Below are positions 1,551-39,071 of a DNA stretch of 39,071 bases, piece after piece. The notes below the pieces were generated by a model. It saw only the letters and a program-made list of their open reading frames with translations, was not told the origin of the DNA and searched no databases. Source of the stretch: Stramenopiles sp. TOSAG23-6 (Eukaryota); assembly GCA_900128565.1 (NCBI GenBank), contig LT635938.1, positions 1 through 39,071 on the forward strand. The letters run 5' to 3'. How positions within the stretch are numbered: the stretch's first letter is position 1; each line of letters starts with the position of its first letter. A program made the position numbers and the translations under genes.

Positions 1551-1614
1551 ATGGATTATGAAAAAATATTTCAATAAAAAATTCGTTAGGTACAAAATTT
1601 CGTATAAAAAATAC

Positions 1615-9972: not shown

Positions 9973-11256
9973 TTAAGACCTTGTGTTTTTAATAGGAAGC
10001 TTGCTTAAATTTATGCTCCTACAAACTTCCGCATTTAAATTTGAGTTGCAGTTTGTCGATGATATTTTCTGTTGCGTGGGTTGCATACTACGCCAGCATG
10101 AAAATAGTACATCATTTTTATACCCGTACATATATAACATAAGAAATCCTTGAAGGAAGAATATAAAATTATACGCAAGTGACAAAGCTGGAAAACTATT
10201 AATTATCAAGCCACAGCCACTGCTAGAGAGACTATCTACATTTCCGTCTATTAATCCAGACATTTTAGAACAACTTTTCAAAGATGCATTTAGATCATTT
10301 ATATTCGAATGGTCTCTAAAACTTTGAATGATACAATCTTGCCACAAACTCGATTTATTAACAAGGCCCAATGCAGGTTTCATATTTCCATTGAGGTAAT
10401 TAGCCAAGAGGCAAGATCGCCAAGAGACACTCGCTTTCCTTTTGACATGAAAGACCTTTAAAAGATTTAGGAGCATTATTGGGACTACCATCGAAGAGAA
10501 ACTAAGCATAAATGTCAAAAATCCTGTCAGCCCCAAGCAACATGTTTTCACACCTCTAAGTTTTTGTATTTTTCTTAATTCTATAAAACAAATACAGAGC
10601 AAAACGTTGCCAACAAACCAAATGAATGTAATAGGTCCGAAAAATAACACCCATCTCACAGGCCCAGTACCCCTAAAAAATAAACAGAAACTATTTGGTT
10701 CAGTGTGCCCAAATGCTTTATAAGTAAGAAGGATAGATACTATTATCAGAGGGAAAAGAAAACAAAAAACTAACGAACGAAAGGGGTCTAACCTTACTTC
10801 ACTTTTTAGCTTTACGAAAAATTGTAACACGGTTCGAAACCATAAACAGCACATGACTAGAGTGAAAAAAGCTATAGATGTTGCCTGTATAATACAAGGT
10901 GCAGTTTTGGAGTTAAAGCCGTGCCTTTTCATTTGAACGTGTGATACGTTGTCAAAACAAAATGATCCATGCTCCCCTCCAGTAATGTCACGAAGAGTTA
11001 TAGAAAAAACCAGAAAGAAGCTTACAATCAAAGTCACAATCGGTGACCTCAATTTCCTCAATTTGGGATCGATTAAGTATGCTAATATATGTAATCCTAG
11101 AAGAAGGCAAATGATAGTCCCAACGGTTGTTTCTAGAACGAGCATCCTATTGGAATCTCTCTTGGAAATAAACGGAGCTTCGCAAGGAATTTCACAGTCT
11201 CCAAGTGGGCTACGTTCTAGTGGTACAGGACATGATTTTAAAGAATCAAAATACAT
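9973..11256 (-). CDS. Frizzled/Smoothened-like seven-transmembrane receptor (5' end uncertain)
   Basis: CPVPL...CEIPCEAPF linker followed by about 7 hydrophobic segments and Cys-containing loops, the pattern of class F-like GPCRs. Confidence 0.6.
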   Translation of the reverse strand: MYFDSLKSCPVPLERSPLGDCEIPCEAPFISKRDSNRMLVLETTVGTIICLLLGLHILAYLIDPKLRKLRSPIVTLIVSFFLVFSITLRDITGGEHGSFCFDNVSHVQMKRHGFNSKTAPCIIQATSIAFFTLVMCCLWFRTVLQFFVKLKSEVRLDPFRSLVFCFLFPLIIVSILLTYKAFGHTEPNSFCLFFRGTGPVRWVLFFGPITFIWFVGNVLLCICFIELRKIQKLRGVKTCCLGLTGFLTFMLSFSSMVVPIMLLNLLKVFHVKRKASVSWRSCLLANYLNGNMKPALGLVNKSSLWQDCIIQSFRDHSNINDLNASLKSCSKMSGLIDGNVDSLSSSGCGLIINSFPALSLAYNFIFFLQGFLMLYMYGYKNDVLFSCWRSMQPTQQKISSTNCNSNLNAEVCRSINLSKLPIKNTRS

Positions 11257-11654
11257 TTCACGTAATATATGACCAAGGAATTAATATATGGTATGCCTAA
11301 TGGAATGTACACAGAAACGTATGGCGTAACCTTCCCTTTTGCTTCTATGTTACTGTGTAATTGAATTCGTGGTGGTGGGTAGCAAAGCGGTAGCAAAAGT
11401 TGATGGATGACCGTTCTTTAAAACTTTCCCTAAAACTTTCTTCGTGTTGTGTTACTTGAAAGTTTGAAACCTAAAAATAAATTTGAAATTGAGCTTTCGA
11501 GTCAATATTATTAGTCAAACGGTCAAAAAATCCAGGACATAGAGAGATAAGAAGACTCTCAAGAAGAAAAAATGAACTAAGTCTTGGACATTACACATTT
11601 TGAGTTCATCACGAAAAGTCTTGTTAGTGTTGTTACTTGGCTAATTTGAAGCTT

Positions 11655-14522
11655 ATGTGGTATCTAGAGAGCACTGCGAATGCTACGACTGTGTCACAAT
11701 TTTGGTTGGTAGCAGGTAGGCACACGGTGGGCCGAAAGGGAGCAATTGCGTTGGTTAACGACAAGTCTGTTAGTCGTCATCACGCGACGGTTATAGTAGC
11801 TGTTTCATTTGACTGTAAAGACGAACAATCAATTCCAAGTATTCAAATAGAAGATAAATCCAAATTTGGTACAAGTGTAAATGGAGAACGTCTCCAAAAA
11901 GGAGAAACTTACAATCTTTGTGACGGAAGCCTCATCGAGTTTGGCGTTTCGAAGTCTGTGTTTGTATTACGTTGGAAGCCGCTTTTATTATGTGTTTCTC
12001 GTGCAGACAAAGCATCTAAAAAGAGAGTTAAAGTTTTAGCAATGAAAATCGGTGCTCATATCACAAGCGTTTGGTGCAGTCGTTGTACTCATCTGGTTCT
12101 CTGTGGTACATTTGCGATAACGTTCAAAGTAATTTGGGCTCTTCTTCAAAGCAAACCGATTATTACACCTAGATGGCTCAGCGATGTCGCGGGAGGTCAA
12201 CCTACATCGATGAGTAATGGCACAGTACATAAATTACGCACGACTTTACCTCAAATACAATCTTATCTTCCTGAAGGTCAGGAGTCGTATACTTGTCAAC
12301 TATTACCAAATTCTCAGAGAAATCAAATGTTTCAAGGTTTTACTTTTATTTTCACTCATCCTTCAGACTATTCAGATATTGTCGAAGCTGGTCAGGCGCA
12401 AACTATTCGGTTGTTTTTATCTACTGTTGAATGCACAGATGATGATTTTCAAAAGTGGTCTAAAAATGATACATGCTTTGTGTACATTTAAAAAATTGAA
12501 TGTTTTACATAAATTATTTTTCGTACGAAAATTTGTGCCTAACAAAAACAATTAAATTAAAATATTTTTTTCACAATACATGGTTGAACCTATCCAAGGT
12601 CTAGTTCATAGATCCTCACAAATTTCATCCATAACACAGGCTAGTCAAGTATTTGGTGTATCTCATTCTAAAGGGCATTTAAATACATTTTGTTCAGATT
12701 TTATTCAGACTGAGAATTTTAATAGAGCTTCAGAAGCAGGAATTGGTGTATTTTCAGAAGGCGATTTCCCAAAGTGTATACTACAAATGATTACCCCAAT
12801 TAAAAAAAACGTAGAAAAAACTGTACACCAAGAGATTATATATGAAAATCCTGTAGGAAAAATGAATAATGAAAAATCCAAAAATGTATCTGTCATGAAT
12901 GCTTGTCGTGTAAATGTAGATAATAAAATAATTCAACAAGTAGAAGATAAAATAATTCAACAAGTAGATAATAAAATAATTCAACAAGTAGAAGAAATCA
13001 ATAATTGCGAAGCGAGTACATCCGTAGACAAACCTAACACACATAATACTACAGTGAAAACTTCATCGAAGAAAGATATTTTGTCGTCTTCGACAAAACA
13101 AATAACAAGAAGTGCAAGGAAGAAACGATGTGGGAGGAATGGACGCCGAGTCGGTCATATTGGTAAGAGAAAACCTATTGAAGTATTTACAAATGATAAT
13201 AAAAGCGATGTAAACGATGTGCAAAATAGTGCAGAGGACAAAGAGAGTGATAAAATTGTGAAGGAGTGTGTTGAAAGTACCAAAGTTGATTGTGGCAATG
13301 ATGAAGTTGTACCATCACTAGTACAAGATAATGAAGTTATACCATCACTAGTACAAAATAATGAAGTTATACCATCACTAGTTCAAGATAATGAAGTTAT
13401 ACCACCACTAGTTCAAGATAATGTAGTTATACCACCACTAGTTCAAGATAATGAAGTTGTACCATCACTAATACAAGATAATGAAGTTATACCACAACTA
13501 GTAATTGATAGCAATAAAAATAAATCTGCATGTCGTTGGCAAACAAAAAAGCGTCATCGAAATGAAATAGGAAATAAAAGTGAAAATTCTTCAAATGAAA
13601 ATGATTCTGATAATGACGGTTTCATTTCAAAAAAGAGGAAAACTCAATCATCATCATCACAAAAAAAAGGAGGCGACATTCTTGTCGGCGACTTGGAAGA
13701 AATAGATACTCTAAACCCGAGTAATGTTGATAATAGTAGTAATGCGTTTATACCTCCAAATGAGCGAAGACATGTATGTTTTATTTTTTTTTCAATTTCG
13801 AATTTTTTTTCATACGAAATTTTGTACCTAACGATTTGTTTTTGAAATATTTTTCCAAAATACATTTGAACGAAAATGGTCCATGTTGGATCTCGGCAAT
13901 ACACAAAGAAAATACATCGAATAGTTTGAACAGTTTTGATGATGAAAAGAATGTAAAATATGCAAAAGTAATTCCACGACAAATTCATACAAATAATCAA
14001 ATACAATCTAATGATGAAAATGAGGGAAGTGCGATTAAATTTTCTCAGGATCATCGGAAAAATAGTGAGGACTCTGGTACTAATTTTAAAAAATTTCGGA
14101 AAAATTTTTACACAGTTTCTAAACAACATCACAGAGTTGCATTTTGTAGTCCAAGAGAATATGTTATACCTGGAAATGGTTCGGAAGCGTTGCAACGTCG
14201 TCGCAACCAATATGCACACGAGGAGATGCTTGAGCGTGAAGCTGAGGAGCTTTGGGTTTTTGATCAGAGGCAAGTGAAGAAAGCTCCATTATCAAAAGCA
14301 CAACAAGAAAAAGCAGAAAATGCAAAGTCTAAAGCAAAATCTAAAGCAAACGAAGCGAAACAAAACGCAAATGCAATTGATTGGCAACAATTGCGCCGTG
14401 ATGGTTTAGTTCAAAAACAAAAAGTTTCTGTTCTAAAAGCCTTCTTACGCAGCAGAAAGTTAAAAGTTGGAGGTCGGAAGGGTGAATTAGTCGAGAGAGT
14501 TTTAATTGAACTTGGGGGATAA
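11655..14522 (+). CDS. NBS1: Nibrin/NBS1 (FHA-BRCT, Mre11-binding motif) with C-terminal SAP-like domain; exons 11655-12481, 12582-13773, 13866-14522
   Basis: MWYL start, FHA (VGRK...DKSVSRHHA...DKSKFGTSVNG), BRCT (CTHLV...TFKVIWALL...PIITPRWL) and NFKKFRK. The three ORF pieces join in frame on removing two repeat inserts. Confidence 0.88.
12482..12581 (+). mobile_element. Introner-like intron, GT...AT, 100 nt (mirror 26456-26555)
   Basis: tgt|GTACAT...CGTACGAAAATTTGTGCCTAAC...AATATTTTTTTCACAATACAT|g; removal gives F-V-V-E in frame. Confidence 0.75.
12916..12996 (+). repeat. 24-bp coding tandem repeat, about 3 copies (VDNKIIQQ)
   Basis: gtagataataaaataattcaacaa units. Confidence 0.9.
13301..13503 (+). 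repeat. 30-bp coding minisatellite, about 7 copies (DNEVIPSLVQ)
   Basis: atgaagttataccatcactagtacaagata units with point variants. Confidence 0.93.
13774..13865 (+). mobile_element. Introner-like intron, GT...AT, 92 nt (mirror 25172-25263)
   Basis: acat|GTATGT...CATACGAAATTTTGTACCTAAC...AATATTTTTCCAAAATACAT|ttg; removal gives R-R-H-L-N-E. ACAT is duplicated at the borders. Confidence 0.82.
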
Positions 14523-14600
14523 GCTATTTCAAAATTTTCGCACATTTTTTTTTGTTTAGTTTATTTAGTTGCTACTATAAACTTTAATTTGACTAAGTCT

Positions 14601-16688
14601 TCATTGTTGAACTGCTTTAATATACACATCAGAGCACATCTCATTAGTAAAGGAAATCACTTTAAATGCTGGTTGAACTTCTGCTATCTTTAATAACCAT
14701 TCTTTACAAGCCCCACATGGATTTAAAGGGTTTGATGCAACTCTAATCGGATAGCCGTTATCTGCTATAGTGTCAGGAGCTTCTATTCCTTGTTCAAATA
14801 AAAATTTATTATAAGAATCACCACGTCGCCTAGATCTTCTACTCGTGGAAGAAGCATCATTTAAACAAGAATTGTGGTTACTATTTACTCCTATTTTTTT
14901 TTGGTGTATACAAGGGCTTTGACTACGACATGTAAAATTTAATGTTCTTTCGATTTTATTATCATCCTCATTTATTGCGTTTTTCCTTGAACTTGATATA
15001 TGATTTTGAGGTTTTGCCCTGTTTCGCTTCTTCTTGATTGGACTAGAAACTACAGGAATTTTTGGTAGTGATAACACTGCTATCATTTTTAAGTCTCTAC
15101 GCCTAAGGGTTAAATCAGAAGCAAGAGCAGTACCTATACAATTTCGTTCAGCACATAAACTACCAGTAGGCATTGATACCTCTAAATTAATTCCACAGTG
15201 AAATATTGGCTCTTTTTGGTTTTCTTTTTTTATCATCAAAACAGCTAACACGGGACTTCTCGTTTTTCGTAACCAGAAAGAAGATAACTCTGTTTCATAT
15301 TTTGTGTCTTTTGTATTTATTTTATTGACTTCTGATTTTGAAATATTTGATTCATTATCATTTGCCGAATTGTCATCATATACACGAGCACACATCATCT
15401 CTGGACCAAATTCAGTATCTGTAAAATTAGATTCCTCAACTTTTTCTTTTTTATTGTCTTTACCTTGGTGATCAAAACTTTTAAGAAATGACCTTTTGAA
15501 CTTTATGACTTCTTTTACAAGTCTTTGTACATCTCTTGATGTGTCACAGACACGTTGTGCAGGCTGCATTTCTAATTGCTCAAATGTCTCCCAACACAAC
15601 AAAGAGGGGCGTAGACGTTGAGACTGCCAGAAGGATTTTGGTTGCCAAAAATGAATATAATCTGGGCGAAAACGTCGTAAACCGGCAATGAGTGCGGAAG
15701 TGCGAGCAGGAGTTCCGTCAGTGACAGTAAGACAAAGATTAAAAAAATCTTTCCAGTCATCTAGAATTTCTGATGCGAGATACTCGCAATGTGCTTCAAT
15801 GTGTGGCTTCAAAACTGTACTAATAAATGCGCTATTTTGTCTGTATCTGAAGACTCCAGAACCACTGTTTAATGTAAATACTTCAATTTCAGGAAAAAAT
15901 GTCTGTACAAATACTTGTAGAATCATGGCAGAGCCTTCCGTTGAGTTTCCTTTTTCTTGATGATCAGGATTCCGTGGAGCACCAGATCCAGAAATTAAGT
16001 ACAGAATTTGTTTACTATTTGTAGGGTGAGCCATGGCTTTTCTCCACTTCGGAATAACCAGAGCAAGGAGTGGGAAAAATATATATATAAAATTAGGTGG
16101 AACATTTGCATCTATCAAACGCCCATCATTACGTACATGAAATTCGGACCAACCACCCAACTGTAAAGGTTTTTGTCCAAGTTTTGATCGAGACTCTTGC
16201 AAATTAAACCCAGCGATGACTCGTTGAGGTATTTCATTTTTGCTATTTAAACTATCTTCTGTGTTGTGCCAACCTTTTGTTTCTATTTCTCCAGGTTGTT
16301 TTTGTAATTGTGTGCGGGAGTTAGTGTCAGCTCCAAATGATAATGGGAATAATACTGGTTCCAAGCATCCTGCTACTTCTGCTTCTTTTGTAAAATAAAG
16401 TAGAGCTTCCATATGAGACATGAGACAGCTGAACTTTGATTTCATAAATATTTGCTGAGCAAAATCTGGATTTGTCTTACCGTCACCACGCTGTTCAATA
16501 TGGCGAGCATATTGAAAATTCTGACTCTTTGGACGAAAAGTATTCTGATGGGCACATAGTACAACATCACTATGAGATACATTATGAACTAAAATCTCTA
16601 AAGGTTTTGGACACGTCGAACTTGAGTTACTTTGTATATTTTTATTGTTCAATTCGTAGGCCTCGTCATTTCTCAACGAAATATCCAT
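14601..16688 (-). CDS. Cytidine-deaminase-domain protein with a large uncharacterised N-terminal region
   Basis: Zn-binding motifs GINLE...LCAERNCIG and NPCGACKEWL, separated by a low-complexity insert. First ATG at 16688. Confidence 0.8.
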   Translation of the reverse strand: MDISLRNDEAYELNNKNIQSNSSSTCPKPLEILVHNVSHSDVVLCAHQNTFRPKSQNFQYARHIEQRGDGKTNPDFAQQIFMKSKFSCLMSHMEALLYFTKEAEVAGCLEPVLFPLSFGADTNSRTQLQKQPGEIETKGWHNTEDSLNSKNEIPQRVIAGFNLQESRSKLGQKPLQLGGWSEFHVRNDGRLIDANVPPNFIYIFFPLLALVIPKWRKAMAHPTNSKQILYLISGSGAPRNPDHQEKGNSTEGSAMILQVFVQTFFPEIEVFTLNSGSGVFRYRQNSAFISTVLKPHIEAHCEYLASEILDDWKDFFNLCLTVTDGTPARTSALIAGLRRFRPDYIHFWQPKSFWQSQRLRPSLLCWETFEQLEMQPAQRVCDTSRDVQRLVKEVIKFKRSFLKSFDHQGKDNKKEKVEESNFTDTEFGPEMMCARVYDDNSANDNESNISKSEVNKINTKDTKYETELSSFWLRKTRSPVLAVLMIKKENQKEPIFHCGINLEVSMPTGSLCAERNCIGTALASDLTLRRRDLKMIAVLSLPKIPVVSSPIKKKRNRAKPQNHISSSRKNAINEDDNKIERTLNFTCRSQSPCIHQKKIGVNSNHNSCLNDASSTSRRSRRRGDSYNKFLFEQGIEAPDTIADNGYPIRVASNPLNPCGACKEWLLKIAEVQPAFKVISFTNEMCSDVYIKAVQQ

Positions 16689-16991
16689 GAGTGAATACAA
16701 AATGCACTAGTATGTGTTTGGAAAAAAATTGAGGCTTGAATAAATACAACCCTACGTAAATTCACAAGTTGATGCAACACAAACGCAAAACTAGAACAAA
16801 TAAACAGAAGGTTTTTCAGATCTGATATCTTTACTAGATCGATCTCGATCTTGTCTTTGGTGATATCTTGTGGAGAGAGACTTTGTTTGAAATTTAAATT
16901 GAAAACGAACGAACGTCAACCGCTTCGTTCGCCGATAATTTCAAATGATTCGCGTTGGATATTATCAGATATCAGGAGATTTCGTGTTTTA

Positions 16992-18076
16992 TCACAATTT
17001 TATTTTTTCATGAATTTTATAAATATTCTTCTCTATTTTGTTCATAGCTATTTCTGTAGCATTATACACTTCTTCTTGACTAAGCGATGCATCAATAGGA
17101 TACACTTTAGAATCGTCAATTTCTCTGAAAAGTTCGACTATTGGAAAAGTTTCTTTATAAAATGTGTTGAACCCTATGAAGTGAAAAAATATTTCAAACA
17201 TTTGAAATTCGTTAGGTACGAAATTTTGTATGAAAAAAAAAAAATGAAGTGGATAAACATACTTTTTCTAATTGATAAAATATTATCATCTTCTCTACCA
17301 CTGACTTTCCCTCTTTCTAATAGTCGCCTCTCTAATATCTTTTGATCGCATGTATAGTACAACATACCACTATATTTGATTGTAGGGTTAGGTGCAGTTT
17401 TTCCGACAGAATTTATAAAATTTTCATTTCTCAAAAGCTTCAGTTGATCAATCCAACCAACGAAATTATCCAAATTTCTTGGGAATCCATCCACCAGAAA
17501 GTTTTGTTTATCACTTTGTGCAATTTTTCGTTGAATCAATCGAACAGTCAATTCTGCAGGAACAATTGAGCCATCTTTAATACACTTGGAAATTAAAATG
17601 CCGTCTTGACTCTTGGGATTACATTGTTCTTCTCGTAAACAATCTCCGGCTGAAATGTGAGTAAACTTGGAATATTTTTTTTCTATCAATTTCGATTGAG
17701 TACCTTTTCCAGAACCAGGACCACCAAGTATGAAGACTACCGACTTAATGGGGTGTAAAGACTCTGTTTTAGTTAAGCTCTCCACATCAAAAAACCCTGA
17801 CATACTCAAGTTTTCTTTCATATGAGGTGAAAGCCAGGTAGTAAATTTTTGTGTTGAGCACTCTACATCAAAGAAACCTGACATACTCAAAGTTTCTTGA
17901 ATATGTGGTGAAAGCCAGGTAGTAAAACTTCGTACTTTAGCTGGATCGACATGAGCTTGGAATCTACAGAAACTTCCCGATAAAGATAAAACAGAAGAAC
18001 GTTGTGCGAGATAACTCGAATGAGGTTTCGGCCAGCGACTTAAGAAACGATTGAAGAAACGATTAAACGGCTGCAT
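16992..18076 (-). CDS. UMP-CMP kinase (adenylate kinase family) with N-terminal extension; exons 18076-17263, 17173-16992
   Basis: VFILGGPGSGKGTQS, HISAGDCLR, FLVDGFPRN and, after splicing, GREDDNILSIRK-RFNTF. Confidence 0.9.
17174..17262 (-). mobile_element. Introner-family intron with canonical GT-AG ends, 89 nt
   Basis: aaa|GTATGT...CATACAAAATTTCGTACCTAAC...AATATTTTTTCACTTCATAG|gg; restores the conserved K-R-F-N-T-F. Confidence 0.88.
17781..17926 (-). repeat. 81-bp-period coding duplication (FTTWLSPHxxExLSMSGFFDVE twice)
   Basis: Copies at 17781-17845 and 17862-17926. Confidence 0.9.
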
Positions 18077-18444
18077 AACAAAAGCTATAAATATTGATGC
18101 TGATATTCTACCTTTGTAAAGTTATGTGGAAGGTATTACGAAGCGTTCAAAAAAGTACAGTTTATGCAATATTCATGTAAAGTCGCACTTTTACAGTCAA
18201 AAGTCTCCAGAAAGTTCAAAAAGTAGTCAATTCAATTGACGACATCTGGATTTTGGACTGACTTGTACAACACGAATTCTGAGTTCCTACGAAAAATTTG
18301 CTACCCTTTAAGTAGGAAATTTTGTACCAAATACCATGGCCATCGAAAACCAGTAATATAAGTGGTTCCTGTGCAACCGGATAATACGTAGGTAATTTTG
18401 ACAGAACGACGACTTCACTTGTAAATTTCCGAATTTCGTCTTAA

Positions 18445-19678
18445 ATGGTACTTCATCCTGAATGCGATGACTATAATGATGACATAGAAGCAAGTAGAGT
18501 ACAAATATGTGACATTAAAGTTGAAAGCGGTACTGTACCACCAAATATACTAACCAAAGTAAGCAAAGAGCCATCATCGTGGCAAAAACAAAAAACAGGA
18601 TTATTACTTGGCACTATTGCAGTTCTATTGTTTTCTCCAGATGCTGTTGTTGTAAAGATAGGTTTAGAACACAATATTACTCCCTTCCAAGTAGCATATC
18701 TAAAATACTTTCCTTGTGTACTTGTCCTAGCGCTGGTGTCCTTGGGTTCTTTCATTTTAACCAAAGTCAAGTCAGCTGATAGTACTATAAACCCAATATC
18801 GAAGGAAACTAGTATTGATGTCAGCGTGAGACTAAAATACATTTTAATTGGTTCTTTGGCATGTTGCCTTACAAACATTTGTTTTACTCTGGCATTTTCA
18901 TATGCAACAGCAGCCGCTGTGCTATCAGTAAGTGCTCTTTCGCCTGTTTGGGCGTCACTTGGGGCGAAATATATTTTGGGTGAGAAGCTAGCAAAAATTA
19001 CCACGTTTGCATGCGTGGCTGTAGTATTAGGTATCATCGTGTCATCTAGCGGGTATTTTCTATTTGATGAAAAAGATGAAAATGAAAGTTTATACACTAT
19101 TTTGTTGGGAATAGGTCTAGGACTAGGAGCCGGCATTTCTGTAGCTGCATAGTATTTAAAATTTACTACAAGACAAATTCATAATAATTTAATCCTTTGA
19201 TAATCTCATGATTTACTCATTTATATTATACTTGACATATTACATGAACTACAGCGCTCTAATTTTACGATATGCGTACACACGATATCCAGGAATCAAT
19301 ATGACGAGTACACCTATTATTGGGTTAGGCTTCTCAGGAATTTTAGCTTTCATCGTTTCGTACTTCATCCAACGACCTGGACTTAACTTTGAGGGCGACT
19401 TATTCGGCACTTTAGTGGTTGGTATTGATGGACTCTTGCTTTTGCCACCAGCATTTCTTTGTTATACATCAGCTCCGAAATTCATTGATCCTGCCGTGGT
19501 AGGTGTTTTAATGCAACTCGAAGCAGTCTTTGGACCTTTACTTGCCTTTTTCATTATTAATGAAAAAGCCAAAATTACGACGATTGTTGGAGGTTCAATT
19601 ATCATATTAACGGTAATAGCACACGAAATTGCAAGAATGCCATCAATGAAAAGAACTTGGATCGGTCAATTCGGATAA
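18445..19678 (+). CDS. EamA/DMT-family transporter; exons 18445-19151, 19255-19678
   Basis: About 10 hydrophobic segments with the paired motifs LSPVWASLGAKYILGEK and LEAVFGPLLAFFIINEK. Confidence 0.85.
19152..19254 (+). other. Conventional GT-AG spliceosomal intron, 103 nt, unrelated to the repeat family
   Basis: ta|GTATTT...CTTGAC...CTACAG|c joins V-A-A-Y-A-L-I-L in frame; lacks the family motif. Confidence 0.82.
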
Positions 19679-19963
19679 TAATGTAATCCAACATTTTATG
19701 TATAATGAGCAAGATAATAAAAAACAAACATGTAGTATGATTTTTTTTTTTTTATTTCGTGTTTTATACAGTTTCAAAAAGTAACGATTTTTATTTGTTA
19801 TTTTGCTATATTTCTCAAAATAATATACCGAGTGTTTGACAAAAAACAGTGTGAGTGATGAGTATTCTTTTGGATTATCATTAAAATGTTGTTGTGAAGT
19901 TAGGTAAATATTAGGACACATTTACTAACTTAGGATTTTCTTCAGTCCCAATTAGTTGGGAAA

Positions 19964-22930
19964 ATGCTAGTTTTCGGAGGTAAAACCTCAACGAATGAAA
20001 ATGCAAAGGCTATATTGGAAGAGGCAAAAGAAGAAAGTAAACGACTTGAACAAATAGAACGTTTGGAGAGAAAAGAAGCTGATCTATTAGCTGAATTAGC
20101 CGCAACACGAACAGAAATAGAAAAATCGTCACCTCGGCATCGACATCAGAAAAGTGGGCGCTCTTCAATGTTTCGTTCAACTAAACTTAAACGGAGCCCA
20201 AGACATCTACATAGTGCTACCTCTATGACCTCTTCCTTCAGGTCTTTAAAACCGCCGCCCATAGATAGGGAAGGTAATCAAAACATGGTTAATAGTAGTG
20301 CTGGGAGGATGCTGTCCCCGAGCAATAGCAATATCGGTGGAACCAATTTGAATAACATTCAGTTTCCTGCAAGCGGACATTACGATTTACTTCCTGTACT
20401 AACAACAAAAGGAGTTGAGGCATTTGAAGTAGGTTTAAACCAAAGTCAAACACCTCATATGCTACCCGTATTTCATCTACCAAGTGTATCCTTTGATGCC
20501 GAAGATAGAATCCAGAATAGACTGCCGACATCGTATAATGTTCGAAATGCCCAAGCAAGTCAGTTGCTACGGCAACAACAATCAAAAGATATACAAAATG
20601 CCTTAGGTATTGCCTCTTCTGAAATGGAGAAACTTGAGACAGACCTTTTTTCACCTCAAGTATCAAAATATTCACTTGCATCTGGTAAAGACGCACTAAA
20701 TATTGGACATGCGGGAAATAGTACATATAGTGCGACGTCTACAAGATCAAATATTGAAACGAACATTTTTTTAGATCAGATCCCTCTTGGGGTTCGAGGT
20801 ACTTTTTCAGAAACTAAACATAATCGGAGTAAAAAGCAGTATCAAAATTTGTATCAACAAGAACACAAAATGATTCATGAAAGCAGAAGAAACACTCAAA
20901 AACAATCAAAACAAGTAGGACATTCTAATCTCAATATAAAAAAAATTAGTAAGAGGAGTAGACAAAAAAGCAGTGGTGGGCGAAATAGTAAAAGATATAA
21001 AAATAACGATTTAGTTAAAGGTGGAAACGACAGATCTATACAAGATGTTGGTAAACTTCGGTCTGATTTATTGAAAAGTCTTCAAGCTATACAAGATAAT
21101 ACTTCTGCAGTGGAAGAAGGGATCATGTGGGTCCGGCAAAAATGCCCAGTAACGTCAATCAGAGCTCAAATGTATATGAAAAGATGGGGCCTTGAAAAAG
21201 TGAAGCGAGTAATGATGGCAATGCTAAGTCGTGAAGTCCGGTTATCTTTTCTCTGTTGGCGCGATGCAGCTTATGAAGCTGTTGAAAAGGAAAAACATGA
21301 AGAATTTTCTAGGCTATCAGGAGCTTCGAGAACATTCCAAACTTTTATGGAGTTGTATTACAAGACTTTGAGAAAAGGTTTCAGTAAATGGAAAGAAGAT
21401 GTGCAAGCCGAAATACTTCGTGAAGACATCGCTATGAAAGTAGAATACGCCTGTGTTTTACAGCGATGGGTCCGAAATGCACAAGCTCGTAAGTTTTTGA
21501 GAATAATTAGAGAAGCACGTATACGAAAAGAGCAAGACATAGCTGCTGCTGATATACAACGACATGTTCGTGGTAAAATATCACGTAAGCAAACGGATCA
21601 TTTAATGATGATATACTATCGTAAACGTGCTGCTTGTCGTCTTCAGCTGATGTATAGAAAATGGGCTGGTCGGAAAATGTTACGCATTATATTTGAGACA
21701 CAAAGGCGTAACCGTGCTTCAGTACACATTCAAAGAGTTGCGCGTGGGGCTGCTGGTCGTCGTCGAAGAGATTATATGCTTGCAAATAAATATAAGGAAG
21801 CCTCAACAATGCTTGTACAAAGAGTATATCGAGGTCACCTTGGAAGAAATCGTGTTGCTCGCATTCTCCGGGATAAACAGCGGGTTATTGCGACTACTAT
21901 CATGCAGCGTCGAATTCGTGGAATGCAAGGTCGAAAGAAAATGGCTCAGCGACGAGCTGAACATGCAATTTATTTGCGCAAACTAGAGCAATGTGCAATT
22001 CGTGTTCAGTCGGTATATCGTGGTCATCGTGGCAAACTCTCGTACCACCTCAAAAAATCTGCAATGCGGAAACGCAGGGAAAAAATGAAGACAAGCGCAT
22101 CTGTTATACAACGATGTTATCGTGCATACAAAAGTCGTGGTATCCTCGGCATGGCAAAGGATGCAAATTTTTTTAAGATGGTTGTGGATGCCCGTGCATG
22201 GGTGGAGTATTATGATGACCAAGCAAGTAAACTTTTTTACTTCAATGCAATGACAGAGGAAGCTTTATGGGAGCCACCCTCTACAGGTTACACTCGATCT
22301 GATGGTAAACTTATTCTATATAATGGAAATGAAATTGATAATCCAAAGGAGGATGAAACAAGAGAACATGTGGAAGCAAAACTCAAGGCAGAGAAGCAGG
22401 CTGCAGAAGGCGGAGAAGCTGGAGTTGTAGAACAAAAAACGTGTATCGAATGTGAAGAAATTGCAGCTGACGGTATTTGTGTCGAATGTGACGATATATA
22501 CTGTGAAAATTGTTACTACAGTCTTCACTCAAAAGGAAACCGAGCAAAACATACCTGGCAACCCTTCAAACAAAATGATGGTGGAAACTCCACAGATGGG
22601 AGTGTTGCCGCAGCAGTCGAGGATGGCTATGAGACAGGGTACGAGACTGCAGATGGATATGAGACTGGTTATGAAGAAACAGGATGGGAAGAAAATTCAG
22701 GCTATGAAGGCCAAGATACTACTGAAGGGCAAGTTGCAGCAATTCCTGCTGAAGGAACCGATGACCCTTGGCAAGAAGTAAACGACGAAGAAGGCAATAC
22801 TTACTTCTGGAACAGTGAAACAGGAGAATCTGCATGGGAGCGTCCAGTATTTAAAAAGCTCAAAACCATGATGAAATTAGGTTTATTTAATGCTGCTTCT
22901 GTAGAAAATAGTGCATTTGGAATAGATGCT
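19964..22930 (+). CDS. IQ-motif/WW/B-box protein, 3'-truncated at the inverted-repeat junction (ORF continues as a chimera to 24436)
   Basis: Many IQ motifs (IQRHVRG, IQRVARG, VQRVYRGHLGR), WW domains (WVEYYD...FYFN...WEPP; WQEVND...YFWN...WERP) and a B-box (CIECEE...CVECDDIYCENC...H...H). Confidence 0.85.
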
Positions 22931-24436
22931 AATGTTCCACCTAATTTTATATATATATTTTTCCCACTCCTTGCTCTGGTTATTCCGAAGTGGAGAAAAG
23001 CCATGGCTCACCCTACAAATAGTAAACAAATTCTGTACTTAATTTCTGGATCTGGTGCTCCACGGAATCCTGATCATCAAGAAAAAGGAAACTCAACGGA
23101 AGGCTCTGCCATGATTCTACAAGTATTTGTACAGACATTTTTTCCTGAAATTGAAGTATTTACATTAAACAGTGGTTCTGGAGTCTTCAGATACAGACAA
23201 AATAGCGCATTTATTAGTACAGTTTTGAAGCCACACATTGAAGCACATTGCGAGTATCTCGCATCAGAAATTCTAGATGACTGGAAAGATTTTTTTAATC
23301 TTTGTCTTACTGTCACTGACGGAACTCCTGCTCGCACTTCCGCACTCATTGCCGGTTTACGACGTTTTCGCCCAGATTATATTCATTTTTGGCAACCAAA
23401 ATCCTTCTGGCAGTCTCAACGTCTACGCCCCTCTTTGTTGTGTTGGGAGACATTTGAGCAATTAGAAATGCAGCCTGCACAACGTGTCTGTGACACATCA
23501 AGAGATGTACAAAGACTTGTAAAAGAAGTCATAAAGTTCAAAAGGTCATTTCTTAAAAGTTTTGATCACCAAGGTAAAGACAATAAAAAAGAAAAAGTTG
23601 AGGAATCTAATTTTACAGATACTGAATTTGGTCCAGAGATGATGTGTGCTCGTGTATATGATGACAATTCGGCAAATGATAATGAATCAAATATTTCAAA
23701 ATCAGAAGTCAATAAAATAAATACAAAAGACACAAAATATGAAACAGAGTTATCTTCTTTCTGGTTACGAAAAACGAGAAGTCCCGTGTTAGCTGTTTTG
23801 ATGATAAAAAAAGAAAACCAAAAAGAGCCAATATTTCACTGTGGAATTAATTTAGAGGTATCAATGCCTACTGGTAGTTTATGTGCTGAACGAAATTGTA
23901 TAGGTACTGCTCTTGCTTCTGATTTAACCCTTAGGCGTAGAGACTTAAAAATGATAGCAGTGTTATCACTACCAAAAATTCCTGTAGTTTCTAGTCCAAT
24001 CAAGAAGAAGCGAAACAGGGCAAAACCTCAAAATCATATATCAAGTTCAAGGAAAAACGCAATAAATGAGGATGATAATAAAATCGAAAGAACATTAAAT
24101 TTTACATGTCGTAGTCAAAGCCCTTGTATACACCAAAAAAAAATAGGAGTAAATAGTAACCACAATTCTTGTTTAAATGATGCTTCTTCCACGAGTAGAA
24201 GATCTAGGCGACGTGGTGATTCTTATAATAAATTTTTATTTGAACAAGGAATAGAAGCTCCTGACACTATAGCAGATAACGGCTATCCGATTAGAGTTGC
24301 ATCAAACCCTTTAAATCCATGTGGGGCTTGTAAAGAATGGTTATTAAAGATAGCAGAAGTTCAACCAGCATTTAAAGTGATTTCCTTTACTAATGAGATG
24401 TGCTCTGATGTGTATATTAAAGCAGTTCAACAATGA
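22922..24436 (+). CDS. 5'-truncated duplicate of the cytidine-deaminase-domain gene, in frame with the IQ/WW/B-box ORF
   Basis: Protein from IDANVPPNF to the end is identical to that of 14601..16115(-). Confidence 0.85.
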   Translation: MDANVPPNFIYIFFPLLALVIPKWRKAMAHPTNSKQILYLISGSGAPRNPDHQEKGNSTEGSAMILQVFVQTFFPEIEVFTLNSGSGVFRYRQNSAFISTVLKPHIEAHCEYLASEILDDWKDFFNLCLTVTDGTPARTSALIAGLRRFRPDYIHFWQPKSFWQSQRLRPSLLCWETFEQLEMQPAQRVCDTSRDVQRLVKEVIKFKRSFLKSFDHQGKDNKKEKVEESNFTDTEFGPEMMCARVYDDNSANDNESNISKSEVNKINTKDTKYETELSSFWLRKTRSPVLAVLMIKKENQKEPIFHCGINLEVSMPTGSLCAERNCIGTALASDLTLRRRDLKMIAVLSLPKIPVVSSPIKKKRNRAKPQNHISSSRKNAINEDDNKIERTLNFTCRSQSPCIHQKKIGVNSNHNSCLNDASSTSRRSRRRGDSYNKFLFEQGIEAPDTIADNGYPIRVASNPLNPCGACKEWLLKIAEVQPAFKVISFTNEMCSDVYIKAVQQ

Positions 24437-24514
24437 AGACTTAGTCAAATTAAAGTTTATAGTAGCAACTAAATAAACTAAACAAAAAAAAATGTGCGAA
24501 AATTTTGAAATAGC

Positions 24515-27382
24515 TTATCCCCCAAGTTCAATTAAAACTCTCTCGACTAATTCACCCTTCCGACCTCCAACTTTTAACTTTCTGCTGCGTAAGAAGGCTT
24601 TTAGAACAGAAACTTTTTGTTTTTGAACTAAACCATCACGGCGCAATTGTTGCCAATCAATTGCATTTGCGTTTTGTTTCGCTTCGTTTGCTTTAGATTT
24701 TGCTTTAGACTTTGCATTTTCTGCTTTTTCTTGTTGTGCTTTTGATAATGGAGCTTTCTTCACTTGCCTCTGATCAAAAACCCAAAGCTCCTCAGCTTCA
24801 CGCTCAAGCATCTCCTCGTGTGCATATTGGTTGCGACGACGTTGCAACGCTTCCGAACCATTTCCAGGTATAACATATTCTCTTGGACTACAAAATGCAA
24901 CTCTGTGATGTTGTTTAGAAACTGTGTAAAAATTTTTCCGAAATTTTTTAAAATTAGTACCAGAGTCCTCACTATTTTTCCGATGATCCTGAGAAAATTT
25001 AATCGCACTTCCCTCATTTTCATCATTAGATTGTATTTGATTATTTGTATGAATTTGTCGTGGAATTACTTTTGCATATTTTACATTCTTTTCATCATCA
25101 AAACTGTTCAAACTATTCGATGTATTTTCTTTGTGTATTGCCGAGATCCAACATGGACCATTTTCGTTCAAATGTATTTTGGAAAAATATTTCAAAAACA
25201 AATCGTTAGGTACAAAATTTCGTATGAAAAAAAATTCGAAATTGAAAAAAAAATAAAACATACATGTCTTCGCTCATTTGGAGGTATAAACGCATTACTA
25301 CTATTATCAACATTACTCGGGTTTAGAGTATCTATTTCTTCCAAGTCGCCGACAAGAATGTCGCCTCCTTTTTTTTGTGATGATGATGATTGAGTTTTCC
25401 TCTTTTTTGAAATGAAACCGTCATTATCAGAATCATTTTCATTTGAAGAATTTTCACTTTTATTTCCTATTTCATTTCGATGACGCTTTTTTGTTTGCCA
25501 ACGACATGCAGATTTATTTTTATTGCTATCAATTACTAGTTGTGGTATAACTTCATTATCTTGTATTAGTGATGGTACAACTTCATTATCTTGAACTAGT
25601 GGTGGTATAACTACATTATCTTGAACTAGTGGTGGTATAACTTCATTATCTTGAACTAGTGATGGTATAACTTCATTATTTTGTACTAGTGATGGTATAA
25701 CTTCATTATCTTGTACTAGTGATGGTACAACTTCATCATTGCCACAATCAACTTTGGTACTTTCAACACACTCCTTCACAATTTTATCACTCTCTTTGTC
25801 CTCTGCACTATTTTGCACATCGTTTACATCGCTTTTATTATCATTTGTAAATACTTCAATAGGTTTTCTCTTACCAATATGACCGACTCGGCGTCCATTC
25901 CTCCCACATCGTTTCTTCCTTGCACTTCTTGTTATTTGTTTTGTCGAAGACGACAAAATATCTTTCTTCGATGAAGTTTTCACTGTAGTATTATGTGTGT
26001 TAGGTTTGTCTACGGATGTACTCGCTTCGCAATTATTGATTTCTTCTACTTGTTGAATTATTTTATTATCTACTTGTTGAATTATTTTATCTTCTACTTG
26101 TTGAATTATTTTATTATCTACATTTACACGACAAGCATTCATGACAGATACATTTTTGGATTTTTCATTATTCATTTTTCCTACAGGATTTTCATATATA
26201 ATCTCTTGGTGTACAGTTTTTTCTACGTTTTTTTTAATTGGGGTAATCATTTGTAGTATACACTTTGGGAAATCGCCTTCTGAAAATACACCAATTCCTG
26301 CTTCTGAAGCTCTATTAAAATTCTCAGTCTGAATAAAATCTGAACAAAATGTATTTAAATGCCCTTTAGAATGAGATACACCAAATACTTGACTAGCCTG
26401 TGTTATGGATGAAATTTGTGAGGATCTATGAACTAGACCTTGGATAGGTTCAACCATGTATTGTGAAAAAAATATTTTAATTTAATTGTTTTTGTTAGGC
26501 ACAAATTTTCGTACGAAAAATAATTTATGTAAAACATTCAATTTTTTAAATGTACACAAAGCATGTATCATTTTTAGACCACTTTTGAAAATCATCATCT
26601 GTGCATTCAACAGTAGATAAAAACAACCGAATAGTTTGCGCCTGACCAGCTTCGACAATATCTGAATAGTCTGAAGGATGAGTGAAAATAAAAGTAAAAC
26701 CTTGAAACATTTGATTTCTCTGAGAATTTGGTAATAGTTGACAAGTATACGACTCCTGACCTTCAGGAAGATAAGATTGTATTTGAGGTAAAGTCGTGCG
26801 TAATTTATGTACTGTGCCATTACTCATCGATGTAGGTTGACCTCCCGCGACATCGCTGAGCCATCTAGGTGTAATAATCGGTTTGCTTTGAAGAAGAGCC
26901 CAAATTACTTTGAACGTTATCGCAAATGTACCACAGAGAACCAGATGAGTACAACGACTGCACCAAACGCTTGTGATATGAGCACCGATTTTCATTGCTA
27001 AAACTTTAACTCTCTTTTTAGATGCTTTGTCTGCACGAGAAACACATAATAAAAGCGGCTTCCAACGTAATACAAACACAGACTTCGAAACGCCAAACTC
27101 GATGAGGCTTCCGTCACAAAGATTGTAAGTTTCTCCTTTTTGGAGACGTTCTCCATTTACACTTGTACCAAATTTGGATTTATCTTCTATTTGAATACTT
27201 GGAATTGATTGTTCGTCTTTACAGTCAAATGAAACAGCTACTATAACCGTCGCGTGATGACGACTAACAGACTTGTCGTTAACCAACGCAATTGCTCCCT
27301 TTCGGCCCACCGTGTGCCTACCTGCTACCAACCAAAATTGTGACACAGTCGTAGCATTCGCAGTGCTCTCTAGATACCACAT
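24515..27382 (-). CDS. NBS1: NBS1, mirror copy (exons 27382-26556, 26455-25264, 25171-24515)
   Basis: Identical translations to 11655..14522. Confidence 0.86.
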
Positions 27383-35523: not shown

Positions 35524-37422
35524 ATGGTAACCATGCACAAGCATGACAATGAACACAAGAAGAGTACGTATGTACTGTCAAGAAAGATATTTCTTCGAGC
35601 AATTGGTTTTGTATATTTGATTGCATTTTCTTCATATTTTTGGCAGTACCCGGGGCTGTACTCTCAACAAAATGGTTTAATTCCTATACAAAATATACCA
35701 GTGACTTCAGATCCTATCACCTTCTTTGTTGAGAATACGTTAAATTTTCAGCCCACCACACTTGCAATCTTTCACAATCATTTGGCTTTCGATATTGATA
35801 CATTTCATGAGCTATTGTCTCTTCTTGGTGTACTTGTTTCCTTTTTTGTGTTATTAGGAACCTATCCAGCTGTATTTTTGTATATTCAGTGGATCACCTA
35901 TTTCTCACTTTATTCAACGGGTAGGACGTTCATGAGTTTTCAGTGGGATATTTTACTTTTAGAGGTCGGCGCCGCATCAATTCTATGGGCACCATGGATA
36001 AAAATTTACAATGGTAAAAGTCCTTCACATGTAGTTCGTTGGTTGCTTCGCCTAATTTTTTTTAAGTTAATGCTTCTCTCGGGAGTAGTAAAACTCCAGT
36101 CAAGGTGTAAAACATGGAAATCCTTGACTGCTCTTGATTATCATTATGCCACACAGTGTATACCAACACCTTTTGCATGGTTTGCTCACCAATTGCCTCC
36201 GTTTTATCAGCAACTTTCTGTTGGAATTTGCCTACTTATAGAAATTCCACTGTCTATATTAATTATTTGTCCTGTACATTTTCATCACGAATTTCAGATT
36301 TAAATTTAATTTTTTCATACGAAATTTTGTACCTAACGATTTGTTTTTGAAATATTTTTTCACAATACTTATTCGTTTCTTAAGACTTACAGCTGCAGTT
36401 ACACAATCAGCCTTGCAGGTACTCATAATTATGACTGGGAATTATACATTTTTTAATCTTCTAACGATTTGCTTATGTATTCCATTGGTCGACGATTTTT
36501 GTCTATCCTATATGTTTTTATGATGAATATCAATGTTTTTTTTTTTATAGAAAATTCCGTACCTAACGATTTTTTTTGTGTGACATATTTTTTCACCAAC
36601 ATGGCTGTTTTCATGTATTTGTACTTGTTTCCTACGAAAAAAACAAAATAGAGCATACAAACATTCTTCTGGAGTGGATAGCAAATATAATTCTCGAACT
36701 ATGAGCAGTGCATTTTTTGTAGCGTTTATTTCATTTTGTATTGGAATTTCTGCGTATGTACGTTTTATTTTTTTTCAAATTTGAATTTTTTTTCGTACGA
36801 AATTTTGTACCTAACGATTTTTTTTGGAAATATTTTTCCAAAATACATGTATTTGAATTGAAGATTTGGAACGAAAATGATACAAAAAATGATCCAAAAA
36901 TTATAACTTTATCTGAAAATTTTAGTCTTTCTTTTGTGAAGTTTTTAGTACATTTGTTTCTAAATGATCCTTCATTGGGTAAAATGTATGTTTTATTTTT
37001 TTCAATTTCGAATTTTATAGGAAATTTTGTACCTAACAAAATTTTTTAGATTTTTTTTGAAATATTTTACCAAAATAAATGAGCATGTCGTGGTCGCTTC
37101 CATTAAAAACATTAAATGCAATATGTAGTCAAATACTCCCATATATATTAGGTACATTTTGTATAGGAATTTCACTACAAATGATATATACCTTTTTATT
37201 AAATTTTCGAAAAATATGTACGTTTTCATCATTCATTTCAAAACGTTTTTTTTCATACGAAATTTTGTACCTAATGATTTTTTATCAAAAAAAAAATATT
37301 TTTCACCAATACATGCATCACAGAAAAAAAGGGTAAAAGAAGACAAATATGTTTTAATATTGTCGTAAACGTAATTAGTTGTATCAAGTCAACGACAGTA
37401 TCAATCATTGCTTTATGTCTAT
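35524..37422 (+). CDS. Lipase maturation factor, 3'-truncated (exons 35524-36273, 36371-36509, 36603-36757, 36849-36985, 37081-37217, 37315-37422)
   Basis: Six exons join into one stop-free frame when five repeat inserts are removed. Confidence 0.88.
36274..36370 (+). mobile_element. Introner-like intron, GT...TT, 97 nt
   Basis: cct|GTACAT...GTACCTAAC...CACAATACTT|att; gives IICP-IRFLRL, colinear with LMF2-type FFAPIRRLRL as recalled. Confidence 0.8.
36510..36602 (+). mobile_element. Introner-like intron, AT...AT, 93 nt
   Basis: cct|ATATGT...GTACCTAAC...CACCAACAT|gg; gives DDFCLS-W-LFS and removes an in-frame TGA. Confidence 0.72.
36758..36848 (+). mobile_element. Introner-like intron, GT...AT, 91 nt
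   Basis: tat|GTACGT...CCAAAATACAT|gta; gives SAY-VFELK. Confidence 0.8.
36986..37080 (+). mobile_element. Introner-like intron, GT...AT, 95 nt
   Basis: aaat|GTATGT...CCAAAATAAAT|g; gives GK-M-SMSW. AAAT is duplicated at the borders. Confidence 0.78.
37218..37314 (+). mobile_element. Introner-like intron, GT...AT, 97 nt
   Basis: tat|GTACGT...GTACCTAAT...CACCAATACAT|gc; gives RKI-C-ITEK. Using the first downstream AG would create TAA. Confidence 0.8.
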
Positions 37423-37521
37423 GTATTTTTTATTTTTTTTTTACAAAAAAATCGAATTTTTTTTTCGTACGAAATTTTGTACCTAACGAATTTTTTATTG
37501 AAATATTTTTTCATAATCCAT
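37423..37521 (+). mobile_element. Introner-like element forming the LMF / 5-phosphatase chimeric junction (99 nt here, 64 nt in the mirror at 1551-1614)
   Basis: tat|GTATTT...GTACCTAAC...CATAATCCAT|ga; flanking exons belong to different protein families and are out of phase. Confidence 0.75.
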
Positions 37522-39019
37522 GAACCCTGCAGCAAGAATTATTCAAATAGCGGATATTATGAATAGACTTGGAAATCGACTTGGTGATAAACATTTTGAT
37601 TTGAATCAACAATTTCATAACTTAGTTTGGATGGGTGATTTAAATTACAGATTGGAAAGTGTATGTCTTACATCATGATTTTTTTCTTCATTGTTTTTTT
37701 TCATAGCAAATTTTGTACCTAACGAACTTTTTTTCCAAAAAAAAAAAAATAATATTTTTTCAAAATACATGTAACTACTGAAAATGTTTTAAATTGTATC
37801 GGTGGTGGTGAGACAAAATTACGTCATTTACATGATGATTATGACACTTTTCGATTAGATCAGAAAATGGGTAATGCATGGGTTGGGTTTAAAGAACCTA
37901 AAAAAGCAGATAACTTCTTTCCTACATATGTACGTTTTTATAATTCATTTCCAATGTTTTTTTTTTTCGTATGAAATTTTGTACCTAACAAAAAAAAATC
38001 AGAAAAAAAAAAAATTCACAATACATAAGCTATATGAAGGTAGAAATGAGAATCTCTCCAATTGGTGCAATACACCAAGACAGTCTGTACGAAAGAGTGC
38101 GCATATAAATGTAAAAAATGATGAAATTTATGATGTTCCGTTATCTCCAATTAAACTTGAAAAAGATGATGAAATCGAAATGATTCGAGTAGATTGGCCA
38201 CGAAAAGTCTATCGTACGTTGTATAAAGAACCCATATATAAAGGTAGAAGTGTCAAAGAACGTTGTCCTGGCTGGTGTGATCGAATTATTTACTCTCAAC
38301 TTTCTTTTTCAGATGCAAAAAAGGATATGTATGATCCAGGTATCCTTTGTCCAATGCCACAACAACAACAACAACATGATAAACAACAACATGATAAACA
38401 ACATGATAAACAACAACAACAACAACATGATAAACAAGTAGGATTAGTGTCAGTAGTAGCCAATGACAAGACAAATATGAAATATGTATATGAAGCAGTG
38501 CATAAAGTTCAAGGTTGTGATATAAGTGATCATGCTCCTGTATTTGGTGTGTATTCACTAACATCTAGAATGTACATACCAGTACAAGTGTTTAATACAA
38601 CTGTAGTAAATGATGAAAATTGTAATGATTCGGAATTATTGTCAAGCCTAAAGAATAAATCTTTAGATTCTATTACAGAGACAAAAGTTTTAGATACATG
38701 TTACAATGAATGCACTACTTCTCCTGAAATACCTCCTAAAATTCCTAAAATACCTCAAGGAGTTGAGCTTCCATTTGGTCGACATGTATGTTTTATTATT
38801 TTTTTTTTACAAAAAAGTCGAATTTTTTTTTTTTTTGGTAAAAAAATTTTGTACCTAACAAATTTTTTTTTTTTTTGGTAAAAAAATTTTGAAATATTTT
38901 TCCAAAATACATGGTTATTTGACAAGAATTAGAATAGAAAATATTTCTATAGGATCTCAAATTCAAAATTCAAAAAAAATAGTAGATAATGTAGTAGAAA
39001 ATTCATCAGAAAATATCAT
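37522..39019 (+). CDS. Inositol polyphosphate 5-phosphatase, partial (exons 37522-37660, 37771-37929, 38027-38785, 38913-39019)
   Basis: WMGDLNYR, PTYK, PGWCDRI and SDHAPV fall in one frame after insert removal. Confidence 0.85.
37661..37770 (+). mobile_element. Introner-like intron, GT...AT, 110 nt
   Basis: agt|GTATGT...GTACCTAAC...CAAAATACAT|gta; gives NYRLES-VTTE. Confidence 0.8.
37930..38026 (+). mobile_element. Introner-like intron, GT...AT, 97 nt
   Basis: tat|GTACGT...CACAATACAT|aag; restores the conserved PTY-K motif. Confidence 0.82.
38786..38912 (+). mobile_element. Introner-like intron, GT...AT, 127 nt, with internal 31-nt direct duplication
   Basis: acat|GTATGT...CCAAAATACAT|ggt; gives FGRH-GYLTR. 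The next several AGs are out of phase. Confidence 0.8.
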
Positions 39020-39071
39020 GTATGTTTTATTTTTTTTTTTACAAAAAAATCGAATTTATTTTTCGTACGAA
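39020..39071 (+). mobile_element. Introner-like element truncated by the window end
   Basis: cat|GTATGTTTTATTTT...TCGAATTT...TTCGTACGAA. Confidence 0.78.

Follow-up and report, generated by a model that had tools for sequence, protein, structure and literature searches.

An introner-like intron family in a marine stramenopile contig, in which most copies appear to end in AT and one ends in AG

How the 3' end of an intron is found when it lacks the terminal AG is the question raised by a 39,071-nt stretch of DNA from Stramenopiles sp. TOSAG23-6 (contig LT635938.1, referred to here as the window), the genes of which are interrupted by similar copies of one short element. One of these copies, an intron of the UMP-CMP kinase gene, ends in AG, and the first-pass annotation took the distance from an AATAT motif to its last base, equal to that in eight non-AG copies, as a sign that the 3' splice site is set by a ruler. 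Analysis of the window suggests a different explanation, to which we give slightly better than even credence: that the copies form an introner-like family of introns, that the 3' cut falls after the conserved terminal C-A-T of a block common to the copies, and that the 20-nt spacing within this block is inherited.

The kinase intron (I2; 17174..17262, minus strand) is an 89-nt, phase 1, GT..AG intron whose first base is 17262 (G of GTATGTTTATCC) and whose last is 17174 (G of CACTTCATAG), and its removal joins the exons through a split AGG codon. Exon 1 (17263..18076, minus strand; putative start codon at 18076 in the list of open reading frames, ORFs) corresponds to residues 5-149 of human UMP-CMP kinase (1tev_A), and exon 2 (16992..17173, minus strand), which contains the stop codon, aligns to residues 153-187; the gap between them fits exactly K, the split-codon R and F. 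Because the two exons are collinear with 1tev_A and exactly three residues are left, I2 and its GT..AG borders are confirmed; the only slide that would give the same mRNA is one of +1 (TA..GG). The host gene has the expected adenylate-kinase fold, with best matches to 1tev_A (8.6e-36), 1qf9_A (6.1e-33) and Pfam ADK (9.8e-26). All the signals of I2 lie on the minus strand: a 5' splice site GTATGT (17257..17262), in the same aligned column as the GT of ten other copies; a TACCTAAC box, the putative branch site (17211..17218), 37 nt before the 3' end; an AATAT motif (17189..17193), 20 nt from its first base (17193) to the last intron base; and the terminal AG (17174..17175). The family profile matches I2 over 17268-17169 (E 4e-16), and BLAST finds 84-86% identity over ~60 nt with two other copies. 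On these sequence comparisons, I2 is a genuine intron and a diverged but true member of the repeated family, as the first-pass annotation had proposed. An 81-nt tandem duplication (86% over 74 nt) is present at 17772-17926, in the N-terminal extension of the kinase ORF and upstream of the P-loop.

A profile built from 11 copies and run on the window with nhmmer, together with a MAFFT alignment covering 11 copies, defines 13 family copies (I0 to I12) in the non-redundant part of the window, 12 of them complete; there is no further nhmmer family match with E < 0.001 in the window. Every copy but I2 has a mirror image in the opposite arm, and because the window is palindromic only the 13 copies are independent. 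They are homologous to one another, with 83-97% identity across BLAST-aligned stretches, and measure ~90-130 nt. All 13 are sense-oriented and lie inside the coding sequence of at least four genes, namely those of the UMP-CMP kinase, an FHA-BRCT-SAP protein, a lipase-maturation factor and a 5-phosphatase; similar copies in unrelated genes, here 13 copies in four gene types, are the mark of introners. Ten copies are clustered within 2.8 kb, and from 36274 to 38026 the intron starts are 205-269 nt apart, with intervening exons of 108-159 nt, four of which are 137-139 nt long. The regular spacing recalls nucleosome-spaced transposon insertion, and the clustering would fit transposon-generated introns.

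The signals of the family resemble those of major-type (U2-type) introns except at the very end. The copies start with GTATGT, GTACGT, GTATTT or GTACAT, and I4 with ATATGT; GT thus stands at the homologous column in 11 of the 12 complete copies, and AT in I4. A T-rich spacer common to the copies is followed by ..GAAATTTTGTACCTAACGA.., and the box that, by its sequence, would be the branch site is TACCTAAC in ten of the 12 complete copies, TACCTAAT in I7 and TGCCTAAC in I0. All 11 aligned copies agree in its first seven bases, TACCTAA, the eighth being C in ten and T in I7, and its distance from the 3' end is 33-53 nt. A terminal block, GAAATATTTTT(T)CA.AATACAT, makes up the last ~22 nt and is ungapped from GAAATAT to the 3' end in 10 of the 11 copies of the MAFFT alignment. 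The 3' consensus, T-run-C-A-(A/C)-A-A-T-A-C-A-T, is the canonical Y-A-G with its final G changed to T: position -3 is C in 10 of 12 complete copies, position -2 is A in 11, and position -1 is T in 11 and G in one. The ends are therefore AT in ten copies, TT in I3 and AG in I2, which has T-A-G at the three homologous terminal positions and is the only copy to end in YAG. As the first-pass annotation had stated, AG, AT and TT occupy homologous last two positions. A hairpin between box and 3' end that would hold AATAT in its loop was considered and rejected: RNAalifold gives 0 pairs, and the named 5-bp stem, with 58% of cells paired, does no better than shuffles or slides.

The non-AG junctions were examined by a frame test that kept the 5' cut at the homologous G, moved the 3' cut from -3 to +3 and required 40 open codons on each side. 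For ten of the 12 complete copies no offset but 0 (and +/-3) passes; in I0 a long ORF runs through at offset 0, which brings the number with a restored frame to 11 of 12, and I8 fails, with a stop at offset 0. When I0 (12482..12581, plus strand; GTACAT..ACAT; nhmmer match 12514-12587, E 5.9e-9; mirror image at ~26456-26555, minus strand) and I1 (13774..13865, plus strand; GT..AT, 92 nt, phase 0; mirror image at 25172-25263, minus strand) are removed, three ORFs (FHA-BRCT, 421-aa and SAP-domain; 11637-14525) become one open 897-codon frame. Collinearity with homologous proteins is gap-free at five junctions (I2, I3, I9, I10 and I11, four of them non-AG) and on the 3' side of I8. In the lipase-maturation-factor gene, removal of I3 (36274..36370, plus strand; GTACAT..ACTT, that is GT..TT; mirror image at 2667-2763, minus strand) joins IICP to IRFLRL exactly as homologues and a 60-sequence profile run at this point. 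The reference for I8 to I11 is the 5-phosphatase P0122 (1050 residues, 52% identity in the matched stretch), with which the downstream side of I8 is collinear. In the inositol 5-phosphatase gene, removal of I9 (37661..37770, plus strand; GT..AT, 110 nt) joins RLES to VTTENVLNCIGGGE, and that of I10 (37930..38026, plus strand; GTACGT..ACAT) joins FFPTY to KLYEGR, both gap-free against P0122; removal of I11 (38786..38912, plus strand; GT..AT, 127 nt) joins FGRH to GYLTRI, collinear with P0122 residues 760-766. For I4 (36510..36602; ATATGT..AACAT, that is AT..AT), I5 (36758..36848; GTACGT..ACAT), I6 (36986..37080; GT..AAAT) and I7 (37218..37314; GTACGT..ACAT), all on the plus strand, the reading frame is the sole basis for the junctions, and I12 (39020..39071, plus strand) is a partial copy cut by the end of the window.

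The nearest AG does not account for these ends. An internal AG between box and end is skipped in I6 (TTTTAG, 31 nt before the end) and in I10 (CAG); in I1, I3, I4, I8 and I11 the next AG downstream would break the frame; that of I9 lies 42 nt downstream, and its use would lose 14 residues that align with P0122; and use of the AAG 3 nt past I10 would remove the K that follows FFPTY. Because internal AGs are skipped and the next ones are out of frame or cost conserved residues, AG is not the determinant of the cut, a part of the first-pass annotation that stands. The cost of assuming otherwise is visible in the public gene model P0121 (EukProt name with the prefix GSMAST32), which is encoded by 37520-38878 and forces GT-AG: it uses the downstream AG of I9 and drops the 14 residues VTTENVLNCIGGGE, drops the KLYEGR segment as well, both of which align with homologues, and reads through I11 as protein. 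Judged by these alignments, P0121 is wrong at the family introns, and the family as a whole has probably gone unrecognized in the annotation of this genome.

The position of both cuts depends on the register in which the copies are read. Cuts of the AT..AC type would give the same mRNA for I1, I5, I7, I10 and I11, as would AT..AA for I6 and AT..CC for I8. Because the AT-start register is impossible for I0, I2, I3, I4 and I9, the GT-start register is the sole one common to all copies, in agreement with the first-pass annotation. It is mainly this register that the AG copy fixes; the ruler claim adds little to it.

The spacing that gave rise to the ruler is itself accurately described: from the start of AATAT to the end there are 20 nt in I2, as in the eight non-AG copies I1, I3, I5, I6, I7, I8, I9 and I11, but 21 nt in I0 and 19 nt in I4, where the motif is CATAT, and I10 has an A-run in place of the motif. 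A ruler that fixes the 3' cut ~20 nt past the AATAT/pyrimidine tract, regardless of terminal dinucleotide, would draw support from the exact value of 20 nt in 9 of the 12 complete copies, the AG copy among them, from the unused CAT two nt upstream of the I2 AG, and from the evident dispensability of AG; we nevertheless consider it quite unlikely. The 20 nt lie inside the homologous, ungapped terminal block, so the equal spacing is inherited rather than measured, and because the coding frame forbids a shift of the junction, a copy whose last base has changed keeps its distance. I0 and I4 are open only at their own offsets, a cut at 20 nt leading to a stop in both (in I0, GT+TGG TTG A.. yields TGA), and by this frame evidence alone the junction stays with the terminal CAT. 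I10, with A-runs and neither AATAT nor a T-tract at -20, is still cut at the homologous ..TTCACAATACAT, a position checked by homology; the distances from box to end (33-53 nt) and from the end of the T-run to the end of the intron (9 to 12 nt) are not constant; and a ruler accurate to +/-1 nt would cause frameshifts. As read from the alignment and the frames, the 20-nt spacing is a matter of shared ancestry and coding frame, not of a measuring mechanism. The TAT in AATAT, the CAT in GACATAT of I4 and the CAT two nt before the AG of I2 are all skipped, and because bare CAT and TAT are passed over, more of the terminal block must be read. Conversion of I2 to the canonical form, the alternative that the first-pass annotation itself offered, is no less compatible with the data: the end of I2 either mutated to the canonical AG or kept a canonical form, and 13 copies do not polarize the direction of the change.

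Another explanation, which we regard as unlikely, is that the cut is set by pairing of the intron ends, as in euglenids or Amoebophrya, or that most copies are of the AT..AC type, with both cuts lying 2 nt further upstream. The consensus ends are indeed complementary (exon AT + GTAT(G)TTT against AAA-ATACAT; 75.5% of cells paired against 20-59% in slid registers), AT precedes GT in 8 of 12 copies, and AT..AC, AT..AA or AT..CC would give the same mRNA in seven. The pairing, however, shows no compensatory change in nine tested pairs, shuffles score equally, I2 pairs in another register, and the conservation of the 5' site and box is of the kind seen in ordinary spliceosomal signals; the AT..AC variant founders on the five copies in which that register is impossible. 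U12-type introns, removed by the minor spliceosome, tolerate AT, AA and other 3' ends, the site being chosen by distance from the branch, and carry a 5' RTATCCTT and a TCCTTAAC box 10-20 nt from the 3' end. The family shares with them a rigidly conserved 5' site and box and a tolerant 3' dinucleotide, but the motifs themselves (5' site GTATGTTTT rather than RTATCCTT) and the distance from box to end (33-53 nt, far past 10-20 nt) do not fit, and an origin of the flexible, distance-set 3' end in the minor spliceosome is very improbable. Ciliate-like excision at the DNA level was dropped from consideration, the signals being splice-like and stramenopiles not being known for it.

The possibility that bears most directly on splicing itself is that the copies are miniature transposon insertions that are never spliced, that they sit in dead genes or in an artefactual contig, and that the restored frame reflects recent insertion with a 1-2-bp duplication. 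In 11 of 12 copies the exon before the intron ends in the same base as the intron itself, and in 8 of 12 the agreement extends to two bases; in the same number, AT precedes GT and AT ends the intron, a pattern that a target duplication might give. Several further observations weigh against spliced introns with non-AG ends. Insertion with such a short target duplication would give the same frame and collinearity whether or not the element is spliced; an AG lies in frame 15, 3 and 9 nt downstream of I5, I6 and I7, respectively, where a canonical site would be possible; the lipase-maturation-factor and 5-phosphatase genes are truncated in the window; the assembly is palindromic, with an apparent mis-join at I8; and the sample of the family comprises only 13 copies. 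When four seawater metatranscriptome contig sets were placed on positions 1-20000 of the window, there was no clean joint at the family introns among the joints listed, all of which are cross-copy joints between different family members, and RNA-derived contigs that carry the element unspliced are plentiful. No spliced protein fragment was found among the 30-138-residue proteins of a 5.8-billion-protein collection, in which the only near-length match is the public gene model. We nevertheless hold unspliced insertion to be rather unlikely. All 13 insertions are in sense orientation and within coding sequence; the copies have diverged to 83-93%, yet the host exons contain no stop or frameshift; a housekeeping kinase of single-copy type carries one of them; and splice-type signals stand at the expected places. 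Splicing is favoured because of this sense-only, coding-only placement, the intact host exons despite diverged copies, and the splice-type signals.

The RNA-derived contigs also bear on the abundance of the element. Summed contig depth in the bins that contain it (high-depth bins 1-2800, 13341-14007 and 16676-17342) is 600-4300 in three of the four RNA sets, in each of which more than 1200 contigs were placed per run, and ~5-22 in X10, against 0-5 in neighbouring exons. We take this depth to mean that hundreds of element-bearing contigs come from other loci and that the element is very high-copy in the sea. The window sequence is found in seawater metagenomes too. Searches for more copies gave at least 118 single chance matches in metagenome DNA, none of them family-like among the matches listed, 0 matches in a viral collection, and 31 matches in prokaryote genomes, all of them chance; a phmmer search of the short exons against solved structures gave 0 matches.

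Taken with these observations, the explanation that we prefer, an introner-like family cut after its terminal C-A-T, would operate as follows. The repeated, sense-oriented family would be introner-like, probably transposon-derived and probably mobile. Each copy would bring its own 5' site (GTATGT, GTACGT or GTATTT) and TACCTAAC branch box, which would be strong signals such as U1/U6 and U2 read in intron-poor eukaryotes; the 3' cut would be made at the end of the conserved terminal block; and spliceosomal removal would be accomplished by a major-type machinery that tolerates U at position -1 when this is presented within the terminal block of the element, some component serving as reader of the block. 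A more far-reaching version, in which the terminal G is dispensable to a major-type spliceosome and hundreds or more of mobile introns are cut after C-A-U, read from an element-borne module of ~12-22 nt, is put forward tentatively, as somewhat less probable than its negation.

The window itself is AT-rich (GC 25-42%) and densely coding, with long ORFs under standard stops that include calpain/FAP42-like, WD40, FHA-BRCT, deaminase, EamA transporter and adenylate-kinase-family proteins; Rfam and tRNA scans of the window gave no matches. BLAST reveals a palindrome in which 1604-16115 matches 37433-22922 at 99.993% identity and the outer part, 1-1611, matches 39071-37460 at 99.876%, leaving a unique centre of only 6.8 kb (16116-22921) between arms 1-16115 and 22922-39071. 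The inner boundary (16115/16116) splits the deaminase gene, giving one deaminase copy a different N-terminal part. The palindrome is probably an inverted chimera produced by single-cell amplification or assembly. A further break occurs at I8 (37423..37521, plus strand; GTATTT..CCAT), where the frame is broken and probably two different introns have been joined. In this region (37315-37530; mirror image at ~1540-1720) the upstream lipase-maturation-factor frame, in which the chain spans profile positions 3-282 of 684, does not connect with the downstream 5-phosphatase frame, which by comparison with P0122 is without the PH domain and the first catalytic half; the two arms of the palindrome differ by a 35-bp indel inside I8. 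The region looks like a mis-join or a recombination between two repeat copies, and the palindrome and the break at I8 together suggest chimeric amplification or repeat-mediated mis-joining. I2 sits in the unique centre and is left untouched by these assembly problems.

Two ORFs for EamA proteins can be joined in frame through a 103-nt intron outside the family (19152-19254; 5' GTATTT, 3' CTACAG); because this candidate ends in CTACAG, the organism may also have introns of the ordinary kind, with AG at the end. The 421-aa ORF contains tandem coding repeats at 13297-13503 (mirror image at 25534-25740), with a period of 30 or 60 nt and 88-93% identity. The nearest homologues of the lipase-maturation factor include a EukProt entry with the prefix INCI, which we take to stand for Incisomonas, a relative of MAST-3. 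Because of this homologue and the GSMAST32 prefix of P0121, the host is most likely a MAST-3-type marine stramenopile.

In the second catalytic step the G at the last intron position touches the intron's first base, and few features of splicing are as well conserved. A family with a canonical 5' site and branch box that nonetheless ends in AT would amount to a natural experiment on the choice of the 3' site, and it would extend the introner idea to elements that bring no canonical acceptor of their own. If the more far-reaching version given above is true, the family is a departure from the GT-AG rule at the 3' end only, spread by a transposon, and published gene catalogues for the lineage would be systematically broken. 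Annotation based on GT-AG fails at the introns described here. Few predicted genes and pseudogenized dynein genes have been reported for MAST-3, as far as the accessible part of the source goes (PMC5778133); the gene counts and the pseudogenization reported for such single-cell genomes may need re-examination. The same part of that MAST single-cell genome paper mentions neither non-canonical introns nor splice sites (PMC5778133), and no description of non-AG introns in MAST-3 was found in the literature searched, the scope of which stopped short of the supplements of PMC5778133 that might bear on the point. Nor was a description of the intron family of the window found in the literature searched.

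The family can be compared with several known systems. Introns of intron-poor eukaryotes, such as those of yeast, have the form GTATGT ... TACTAAC ... YAG, and the family resembles them in its GTATGT, its TACTAAC-like box and the 33-53-nt gap to the 3' end, but differs in the extra C of its box (TACCTAAC), in that I6 and I10 pass over the first YAG downstream of the box, and in its terminal T. Like the introners of Micromonas, Aureococcus and many marine protists, it consists of near-identical short copies in unrelated genes, all in sense orientation, clustered, separated by exons of ~137-159 nt and equipped with their own splice signals, and the ends may correspond to terminal inverted repeats accompanied by short direct repeats; Huff et al. 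(2016) reportedly described introners that obtain one splice site from target duplication and delimit nucleosome-sized exons. Whereas described introners have canonical sites, however, 11 of the 12 complete copies here end in AT or TT. In the accessible text of a 2025 survey of introners, the 3' sites given are AG and AC, and mainly non-canonical families were checked by hand against transcript or RNA-seq alignments, failures being discarded (PMC12130899). In Fritillaria borealis, of an animal lineage, 95% of introns escape GT/AG at both ends, and divergent U2AF paralogues accompany an otherwise conserved spliceosome, according to the portion of the source available (PMC13326754); the non-AG 3' ends are a point in common with the window, and Fritillaria is evidence that 3'-end recognition is open to retuning, but that portion describes no repeated family with a canonical 5' site. 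The dinoflagellate Amoebophrya offers a parallel for repeated non-GT-AG introns in a marine protist: its introns have inverted repeats at their ends and direct repeats of 3-5 nt at their borders, which make the borders ambiguous, as in the window, and within the text available they show no terminal dinucleotide pattern and no conserved 5' site or branch box, a non-standard mechanism being proposed (PMC7789003). Unlike the Amoebophrya introns, so far as that text describes them, the family in the window has a strongly conserved 5' site and box, and only its last base deviates.

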